A stretch of 64,000 nt of DNA, taken from Escherichia coli (GTDB taxonomy: Bacteria; Pseudomonadota; Gammaproteobacteria; Enterobacterales; Enterobacteriaceae). Position 1 is the first letter of the stretch. Each line of letters begins with the position of its first letter. Below, piece by piece: positions 1,246 through 1,575 of the stretch. The notes beneath the pieces were generated by a model. That model had not been told where the DNA came from, ran no database searches, and worked only from the letters and a program-made list of their open reading frames with translations. The DNA lies in NCBI RefSeq assembly GCF_003334405.1, contig NZ_QOWM01000003.1. One strand, written 5' to 3'. A program made the position numbers and the translations under genes.

Positions 1246-1277
1246 CAGATGTAAAATTATTTTGTCCCTTTAATTAT

Positions 1278-1310
1278 AAAGCAGAGTTATGTTTAAGCTC
1301 TGCTTTATTT
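1278..1310 (+). terminator. Putative rho-independent terminator after paaY
   Basis: Stem aagcagag / ctctgctt followed by T-rich tract tttatttattt. Confidence 0.5.
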
Positions 1311-1575
1311 ATTTGAGTATTAATTCATACCGTTTTTTCATCATATAATTATTTATAATGAGAATGTGGTTTTAATTTGTAATTTATATTATATACACAA
1401 TTTATATATTTTATGGTCTTTTTTTATTCACCTGAATTATAATTGTGAATTATAGGAAAGTATGTTTGATTAGATAATAATCTACTGGCAATATTGGATG
1501 TCTTCTATGTTTTAAATAACTAATTGGTCGGGTTAGTGCATCCGGCTTTCTTTATATTCGCCAGAAGGATTTATT

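Follow-up and report, generated by a model that had tools for sequence, protein, structure and literature searches.

The AT-rich paaY-ydbA spacer in an Escherichia coli strain with intact ydbA: a known promoter island with two differently conserved parts

Our analysis indicates that the 330-bp spacer between paaY and ydbA is the regulatory region of ydbA, that it is one of the promoter islands, a known class of AT-rich DNA coated by H-NS, and that it is built in two layers. We put the probability of this reading at about 0.72. The DNA analysed is a stretch of 64,000 bp from an Escherichia coli assembly (GCF_003334405.1, contig NZ_QOWM01000003.1), which is called the window here and whose positions are used throughout. 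The spacer is the published paaY/ydbA promoter island itself, present here in a strain whose ydbA is intact, and the finding is in this sense already known.

In the reading that we prefer, the distal layer (about 1309-1461), which has ~21% GC and is rich in TpA, would be a composition-dependent platform on which H-NS, together with partners of the StpA/Hha type, nucleates and from which it spreads. RNA polymerase would be trapped or excluded at the many weak and overlapping promoters, and little full-length ydbA mRNA would be made. The proximal layer (1462-1575) would hold, besides the ribosome binding site (RBS) and a small hairpin in the leader, what is probably the core promoter (TTGATT-18-AATATT). 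At the 5′ edge, a terminator (1276-1308) would insulate ydbA from read-through of paaXY and from a sigma-54 site located in paaY. Some condition or counter-silencer would then relieve the silence of ydbA. The causal role of H-NS in the silence, the place of the promoter and the existence of a relieving condition are what we infer in this scheme.

Composition and setting of the spacer

Our own observations concern the composition and anatomy of the spacer, the pattern of its conservation and its linkage to ydbA. The genes in this part of the window are in the order paaX, paaY (655-1245, + strand), the spacer, ydbA (1576-7344, + strand), pdxI and ydbD. The bounds of the spacer (1246-1575) are exact, with the stop codon of paaY ending at 1245 and the ATG of ydbA beginning at 1576. 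Bases 1-12000 of the window are ~100% identical to several complete E. coli genomes, for example that of the O141:H4 strain P13-6. Over positions 1100-1700 (601 bases), the window differs from K-12 MG1655 by a single base, which is T at 1412 in the window and C in K-12.

With 98 A, 150 T, 48 G and 34 C, the spacer has a GC content of 0.248, as against 0.494 for the window and 0.503 for coding sequence. When 200-bp windows were moved across it, their GC content ranged from 0.205 to 0.295, while both flanks are at ~0.50, a level that is regained within 200 bp. A GC content as low as this is found in only 0.02% of all 330-bp windows of the 64 kb, and all of these overlap the spacer itself; the second GC-poorest 330-bp locus of the window (60124-60453) has a GC content of 0.288. 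Among the 30 annotated intergenic regions, the spacer is the GC minimum (next 0.321; median ~0.40). The AT-richness was thereby confirmed to go well beyond that of the ordinary intergenic DNA of the window. An earlier note on this DNA had described the paaY-ydbA gap as far more AT-rich than the flanking coding sequence and had proposed windowed GC content as the check; the sharp local dip that we found (24.8% GC against ~50% in the flanks, and not a uniform level shared with the neighbours) bears this out.

The A/T tracts mentioned in that note are also present. There are 17 runs of at least six bases consisting of A and T only, which together make up 173 of the 330 bases, and the string quoted as an example, taatttatattatatacacaatttatatatttt, is located at 1380-1412. 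TpA steps are three times as frequent in the spacer as in the window (0.143 vs 0.048). Promoter-like pairs of -35 and -10 hexamers, counted on both strands, occur at 45.5 per kb of spacer and 6.7 per kb of window, a 7-fold difference that comes from a simple -35/-10 scan and is thus based on a measure other than the PlatProm criterion of the published islands. The spacer therefore has two properties by which promoter islands are recognised, namely at least 300 bp of DNA with A+T far above the genome average and, by the simple scan, dense overlapping potential promoters on both strands.

A 21-nt imperfect inverted repeat (1414-1434 / 1667-1687) was also noticed. It is not kept in divergent alleles and was treated as chance.

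Correspondence to a published promoter island

In K-12, the spacer between paaY (+) and ydbA (+) is entry 1463061_385 (385 bp) among the 78 "promoter islands" of MG1655 (PMC3661553, Table 1). Anchored on the sigma-54 site described below, this island is placed at about 1226-1610 of the window. H-NS occupancy and the low transcription of the class are taken here from the literature on this near-identical K-12 sequence. The island was H-NS-bound in the data of Kahramanoglou 2011 (MG1655) and Oshima 2006 (W3110) but not in those of Grainger (PMC3661553). These ChIP data were obtained in K-12, whose ydbA is a pseudogene, unlike that of the present strain. As a class, promoter islands are bound by RNA polymerase, which forms open complexes on them, but their output of full-length RNA is very small (PMC3661553).

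The locus is thus the same as that of the promoter islands of Shavkunov, Panyukov and Ozoline, and it shares with them at least 300 bp of AT-rich DNA, dense start sites on the two strands, H-NS occupancy in K-12 and an adjacent gene that has been flagged as foreign. It differs from the K-12 island in that the downstream ydbA is intact here (1922 aa) but a pseudogene there, and in that the ATG of the small ORF ynbG has been lost here. The published list gives the islands without their internal anatomy, that is, the terminator, the variable distal part and the conserved proximal part.

The earlier note had taken the composition as the signature of an H-NS-type silenced promoter region. This is partly supported by the K-12 literature: a spacer that differs by one base is a listed island and was bound by H-NS in two of three ChIP studies, but the high-affinity H-NS motif, a feature that supports membership in the class without defining it, is absent. 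The best that we found for this motif, TCGATAAATT, was one 8/10 match in the spacer (1399-1408), and its count in the window is not above that of shuffles. This weak match and the negative result of Grainger count against the H-NS explanation. So does the body of ydbA, which is not AT-rich (GC 0.491), since any H-NS filament would then be confined to ~300 bp. On the other side, ydbA RNA was found to be up 7.7-fold in an rpoZ mutant (PMC5811629). This means that ydbA RNA of K-12 is low enough to rise so far, and we counted it for silencing. A literature search on Salmonella bigA and H-NS gave nothing usable.

The case indicates that a promoter region of the H-NS-silenced type can be recognised by its composition, from sequence only; the exact K-12 spacer had already been catalogued, and the finding means little beyond confirmation. 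A small added value lies in the dissection of the spacer into a distal part whose composition is kept and a proximal part whose sequence is kept. Two others of similar size are the population evidence against the essentiality of ynbG, and the link that can be drawn between the AT-rich stretches of the window (ynbG, yncH) and "essential" calls made by TraDIS only.

Genes of the type of ycgV, yfaL, sfmA, elfA, yadN and yehD are cryptic under laboratory conditions, and several such cryptic adhesin genes have been shown by experiment to be derepressed in hns mutants. The H-NS-bound promoters of these adhesin and autotransporter genes (autotransporter ycgV and yfaL; fimbrial sfmA, elfA, yadN and yehD) likewise have AT-rich upstream regions, which are found in the same promoter-island table as the paaY/ydbA spacer (PMC3661553).

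The distal AT-rich core

Comparison of 13 alleles showed that the whole homologous spacer has a GC content of 0.25-0.30 in all of them. Its distal segment (1259-1461) has a GC content of 0.207 in the window and of 0.20-0.26 across the alleles. The identity of this segment to the window ranges from 0.59 to 0.93, and in the divergent alleles it is down to 0.59-0.73 with several indels. The proximal part (1462-1575) of the same alleles is 0.75-0.97 identical to the window. As judged from these alignments, it is the composition of the distal core that is conserved and not its sequence.

A low GC content that survives heavy sequence turnover and indels argues that the composition itself is maintained. 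This pattern is the expectation if composition and DNA shape matter rather than specific sites, and it fits a composition-dependent platform. We propose that the platform for H-NS would be the AT-rich core at 1309-1461, which has ~21% GC and dense promoter-like hexamer pairs on both strands.

In strain PM4, two copies of IS1 are present in the distal AT-rich part, one after 1286 and the other after 1327. The bgl operon has an H-NS silencer in its AT-rich upstream region and is activated by insertion of IS1 or IS5 there. The AT-rich upstream silencer proposed here and the natural IS1 insertions of PM4 suggest a likeness of ydbA to bgl, which we treat as a lead only. Unlike in bgl, no downstream silencer element was identified for ydbA, and the body of ydbA has an ordinary base composition.

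The terminator downstream of paaY

Our terminator scan detected a bidirectional intrinsic terminator hairpin at 1276-1308 (both strands), starting 31 nt past the stop codon of paaY. It consists of a perfect 11-bp inverted repeat that can be extended to a 13-bp stem, and it is flanked by U-rich tails on both strands. The fold energy is -16.1 kcal/mol on the + strand (z -4.5) and -14.2 kcal/mol on the - strand (z -5.6), and none of 200 shuffles folded as well. Three pairs of the stem are changed on both sides, with the pairing kept, in L011, a divergent allele that is paa+; in alleles with no paaY upstream, the stem has decayed. The hairpin thus has the features of a Rho-independent terminator, namely a stable stem, a U-tract, a position after the stop codon and a stem that is maintained. 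We read this as the terminator of paaXY, apparently usable in both directions. It could also end minus-strand transcripts that come from the AT-rich core.

A sigma-54 binding motif, TTGGCATGGAAAAAGCA, lies in the 3′ end of paaY (1099-1115, + strand) and points toward ydbA; it has one exact match in the window. The same motif is the sigma-54 ChIP-seq site IS16 of Bonocora et al. 2015, which is listed 464 bp upstream of ydbA and from which no transcript is documented (PMC4591121). The terminator hairpin at 1276-1308 stands between this site and ydbA.

Discrete ordinary elements fill part of the length of the spacer, and this agrees with the view that the whole is an ordinary composite. Its low GC content would then simply result from relaxed selection and from several such parts taken together (the terminator and its U-tract, a small gene and promoter DNA of the UP-element type), while the H-NS signal would be incidental and without any control of ydbA. 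The lack of a strong H-NS consensus site and the negative result of one of the three ChIP studies are on the side of this explanation, and no hns-mutant data showing hns-dependent expression of ydbA were found in the literature searched. However, the 21% GC of the distal part is far under the values of the other 29 intergenic regions (0.32-0.585), all of which have promoters and terminators. The AT-richness also outlasts sequence turnover and indels, and H-NS binding was positive in two independent sets of ChIP data. We therefore regard an ordinary composite spacer as unlikely, and prefer the reading of the spacer as an H-NS-coated regulatory region.

The proximal block and the ydbA leader

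The proximal block (1462-1575, + strand) was taken, from its conservation among the alleles, as the putative core promoter and 5′ UTR of ydbA. The 42 nt around the start codon, TTCTTTATATTCGCCAGAAGGATTTATTATGCAAAGGAAAAC (1548-1589), are invariant in 12 of the 13 aligned alleles, and the part from 1550 onward is invariant in all 13. The best candidate sigma-70 promoter of ydbA is TTGATT-18-AATATT (1466-1495, + strand), which agrees with the consensus at 8 of 12 positions. Both hexamers and the 18-nt spacing are unchanged in 13/13 alleles, including the most divergent one. If this is the promoter of ydbA, transcription is predicted to start near 1502 and the 5′ UTR would be ~74 nt long. The Shine-Dalgarno sequence AAGGA (1564-1568) and the ATG of ydbA (1576-1578), read from the + strand at 1564-1578, are invariant in all alleles.

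The whole spacer had been called a leader of ydbA in the earlier note. This name is too simple for a region that also contains the paaY terminator and the minus-strand ORF ynbG, both of which had been overlooked.

The terminator scan also called a leader hairpin at 1526-1558 (+ strand), in which an 8-bp stem (1526-1533 with 1540-1547) is followed by the U-rich sequence TTTCTTTATATT. The distance from the end of the hairpin to the ATG is 29 nt. This element might act as an insulator, attenuate transcription weakly or stabilise the mRNA through its stem.

A cis-acting RNA leader, in which 1526-1558 would gate ydbA as an attenuator or as a 5′ stabilising stem, is an explanation compatible with that by H-NS. 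The terminator-like call of the scan and the invariant flanking sequence would agree with it. So would the stem at 1526-1547, of whose cells 98.9% are paired over 11 distinct alleles and which allele L011 retains despite an insertion of 23 nt in the loop. The pairing is kept by one-sided changes only (three pairs), however, with zero compensatory changes on both sides, and one allele has a U-U mismatch and adopts a different fold. The fold energy of the hairpin, -9.4 kcal/mol (z -1.1), has no significance over shuffles. An Rfam scan of 900-2000 with E values up to 1 gave no match, and no RfaH ops element (GGCGGTAGNNTG) was found in the leader within 2 mismatches. A larger fold that would sequester the RBS was proposed by RNAalifold; its stability was at the level of shuffles (z 0.3 and -0.16), it had no variable columns, and it was rejected. 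On balance, control of ydbA by such an RNA leader seems quite improbable to us.

Slimmer still is the chance that ydbA is gated twice, by H-NS coating of the distal core and by an RNA checkpoint, with the 1526-1558 hairpin and its U-tract either attenuating transcription conditionally or insulating ydbA from the many spurious starts within the island. If so, counter-silencing alone would not be enough for productive expression of the 1922-aa adhesin, and antitermination would be required as well.

Linkage of the spacer to ydbA

In the window, ydbA (1576-7344, + strand) is an intact gene for a 1922-aa autotransporter of the BigA/YdbA type, according to the ORF list, Pfam and NCBIfam. The Pfam domains of the protein are BigA_beta and the Autotransporter beta-domain, and with these domains and this length its designation as a giant autotransporter in the earlier note was correct. 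Its score against the NCBIfam model auto_BigA is 1073.9 bits, under the equivalog cut-off of 3400. The gene is whole here, whereas the copy of K-12 MG1655 is split by IS2 and IS30.

The end of paaY was matched in 4,495 of 5,426 complete E. coli genomes. The proximal leader and the 5′ end of ydbA are carried by 2,424 of the 5,426 (45%), and the spacer and ydbA are both missing from ~55%. Strains that have paaY but no ydbA have no spacer either: in these, only a few bases separate the stop codon of paaY from the final ~20 nt of ydbA, beyond which the usual ydbA-pdxI spacer begins. Conversely, strains without the paa operon retain the spacer between ydbL and ydbA, with ~85% identity from position 1259 of the window on. 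As judged from this distribution, the AT-rich spacer segregates with ydbA and not with paaY. The remnant of ~20 nt from the 3′ end of ydbA indicates that the absence of the gene is due to deletion and is not an ancestral empty site.

In K-12, the island overlaps one predicted by GIST, and the gene was flagged as foreign by Price et al. (PMC3661553). Together with the presence/absence polymorphism of ydbA and the use of the region as a target by insertion sequences, this might suggest that the spacer is a mobile-element scar, or the border of a horizontally transferred island with which ydbA arrived. However, the GC content of ydbA equals that of the genome, the gene is at the same chromosomal position in all lineages, and its absence goes back to deletion, as shown by the last ~20 nt kept in the strains without it. 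The spacer sequence is single-copy (median 1 place per genome), and no meaningful flanking repeats of the spacer were found. Phage records had no similarity to the spacer region, and in the plasmid collection only two large E. coli records were matched, both through a diverged copy of this locus. We consider a scar or island edge very improbable. The hint of the earlier note at a horizontally acquired adhesin gene is weak: the GIST and Price flags and the accessory distribution (2,424/5,426) speak for it, and the GC content of 0.491, the fixed position and the absence by deletion speak against it.

Searched for in 100,044 species representatives, the exact 27-mer around the ATG of ydbA matched a single genome, which carries the label E. 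coli. Loss of ydbA and its interruption by insertion sequences are frequent, which is what one would expect of an adhesin gene that is silent most of the time.

The small ORF ynbG

A 21-codon ORF, ynbG (WP_010723099.1), is located on the - strand at 1349-1414 and is annotated in K-12 and other genomes. The substitution of T for C at 1412 turns its ATG into ATA, so that the ORF starts with ATA in the window and with ATG in K-12, and its translation in the window opens with IKYINC. Only 3 full-length matches among ~1,149 matched genomes are identical to the window over 1372-1452 and thus have the T at 1412. In other alleles, the reading frame is shortened (ST540), frameshifted (EcU3) or startless (Esc9, 2022H048 and Z0117). 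With no canonical start here, and with the frame or start lost in EcU3, Esc9, 2022H048 and Z0117, ynbG does not behave as a small-protein gene would.

In the literature, ynbG is placed beside the paa operon (PMC9976479; PMC5821084). It had zero Tn5 insertions in a dense TraDIS library and was called "potentially essential" (PMC5821084). The natural variation argues against this, given that the ORF starts with ATA here, has lost its frame elsewhere and is deleted in ~55% of the genomes. The gene yncH, which is in the second AT-rich stretch of the window, is on the same TraDIS-only list as ynbG. That both lie in AT-rich stretches and both were called by TraDIS only suggests cold spots of insertion, not essentiality. 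For ynbG, we consider it more likely that the TraDIS call reflects such a cold spot, in DNA that is rich in AT and probably coated by H-NS. The zero Tn5 insertions are compatible with occluded AT-rich DNA.

The annotation of ynbG in K-12 and many genomes, its lack of transposon insertions (PMC5821084) and a minus-strand promoter-like site, TTATCT-17-TATAAT, just upstream of it would all agree with a region that serves to encode and express YnbG, its AT-rich DNA being the gene and its promoter, but natural variation (the ATA start, the truncated, frameshifted or startless alleles and the ~55% of complete genomes without spacer and ydbA) largely refutes this, and the ORF spans only 66 of the 330 bp and shares its place on the TraDIS-only list with yncH, so that this explanation is hardly credible.

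A "ynbG promoter" reported from genomic SELEX, CTGACA-17-AATAAC (PMC3946193), maps to 2620-2648 on the - strand, within ydbA and outside the spacer.

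Natural variation in ynbG and yncH

The 21-codon minus-strand open reading frame ynbG (1349-1414) lies within the AT-rich spacer between paaY and ydbA, and it was labelled 'potentially essential' in a TraDIS study (PMC5821084). Analysis of its start codon showed ATA in the window (base 1412 = T), whereas ATG is present in K-12 and in the closest complete genome, P13-6. The change at 1412 is shared by just 3 full-length matches among ~1,149 matching genomes. In the divergent alleles of the spacer, the ynbG frame was found to be truncated, frameshifted or without a start, and in ~55% of complete genomes ynbG has been lost together with ydbA by deletion. 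Taken together, the ATA start, the broken frames and the frequent deletion, all read from natural sequence variation, argue against this label for ynbG.

The stretch at 60124-61117 (GC 0.29-0.32), which covers yncH (60258-60470, plus strand) and the spacer ahead of the vgrG/rhs locus, ranks second in AT-richness within the window. IS1 or IS903 was found at this stretch in other strains. Both yncH and ynbG are on one TraDIS-only 'low insertion' list, and this shared listing suggests that Tn5 inserts poorly into such AT-rich DNA (cold spots), not that the genes are essential.

A proposed ynbG promoter and a sigma-54 site

A 'constitutive promoter', CTGACA-17-AATAAC, was assigned to ynbG by genomic SELEX (PMC3946193). 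We rejected it as the ynbG promoter, as its position (2620-2648, minus strand, with a near-copy at 2326-2354) is antisense in a coding repeat of ydbA, ~1.2 kb from ynbG. An exact match to IS16, a sigma-54 ChIP-seq site of Bonocora et al. 2015, was identified inside paaY (TTGGCATGGAAAAAGCA, 1099-1115, plus strand). This copy points to ydbA and is separated from it by the terminator hairpin at 1276-1308.

Insertions and repeats in the spacer

In strain PM4 (allele L012), the distal AT-rich spacer carries two IS1 insertions, at positions equivalent to 1278-1286 and 1320-1327 of the window. The first is within the terminator stem and has a 9-bp target duplication, AAAGCAGAG; the second is 41 bp beyond it, with an 8-bp duplication, TTAATTCA. 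By analogy, this pair may resemble the situation in the bgl operon, which is silenced by H-NS and activated by IS elements.

The most divergent allele, that of Escherichia strain SCPM-O-B-8794 (L011), retains the two strands that form the stem of the small hairpin in the leader (1526-1547), and the loop of this hairpin contains a 23-nt insertion that is partly self-complementary (AATTGT...ACAATT). A 21-nt inverted repeat with 86% complementarity was also identified between the spacer (1414-1434) and ydbA codons 31-37 (1667-1687). It is not conserved in the divergent alleles and is probably due to chance.

Polymorphism and annotation of ydbA

Across the loci homologous to 1576-7344, ydbA is highly polymorphic: the protein has 1922 aa in the window, 2020 aa in strain H3 and >2,700 aa in Esc9-type alleles. 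The gene is disrupted by IS2 and IS30 in K-12 and by IS3, IS4 or ISKpn26 in other strains, and a recurrent break near ~1691 was seen in several genomes. Several RefSeq records (genome matches H13, H70, H71, H73, H75 and H76) name this giant autotransporter 'EntS/YbdA MFS transporter', which looks like a confusion of the names ydbA and ybdA in automated annotation. Its other product names include 'pectate lyase-fold domain-containing protein' and 'beta strand repeat-containing protein', among further ones.
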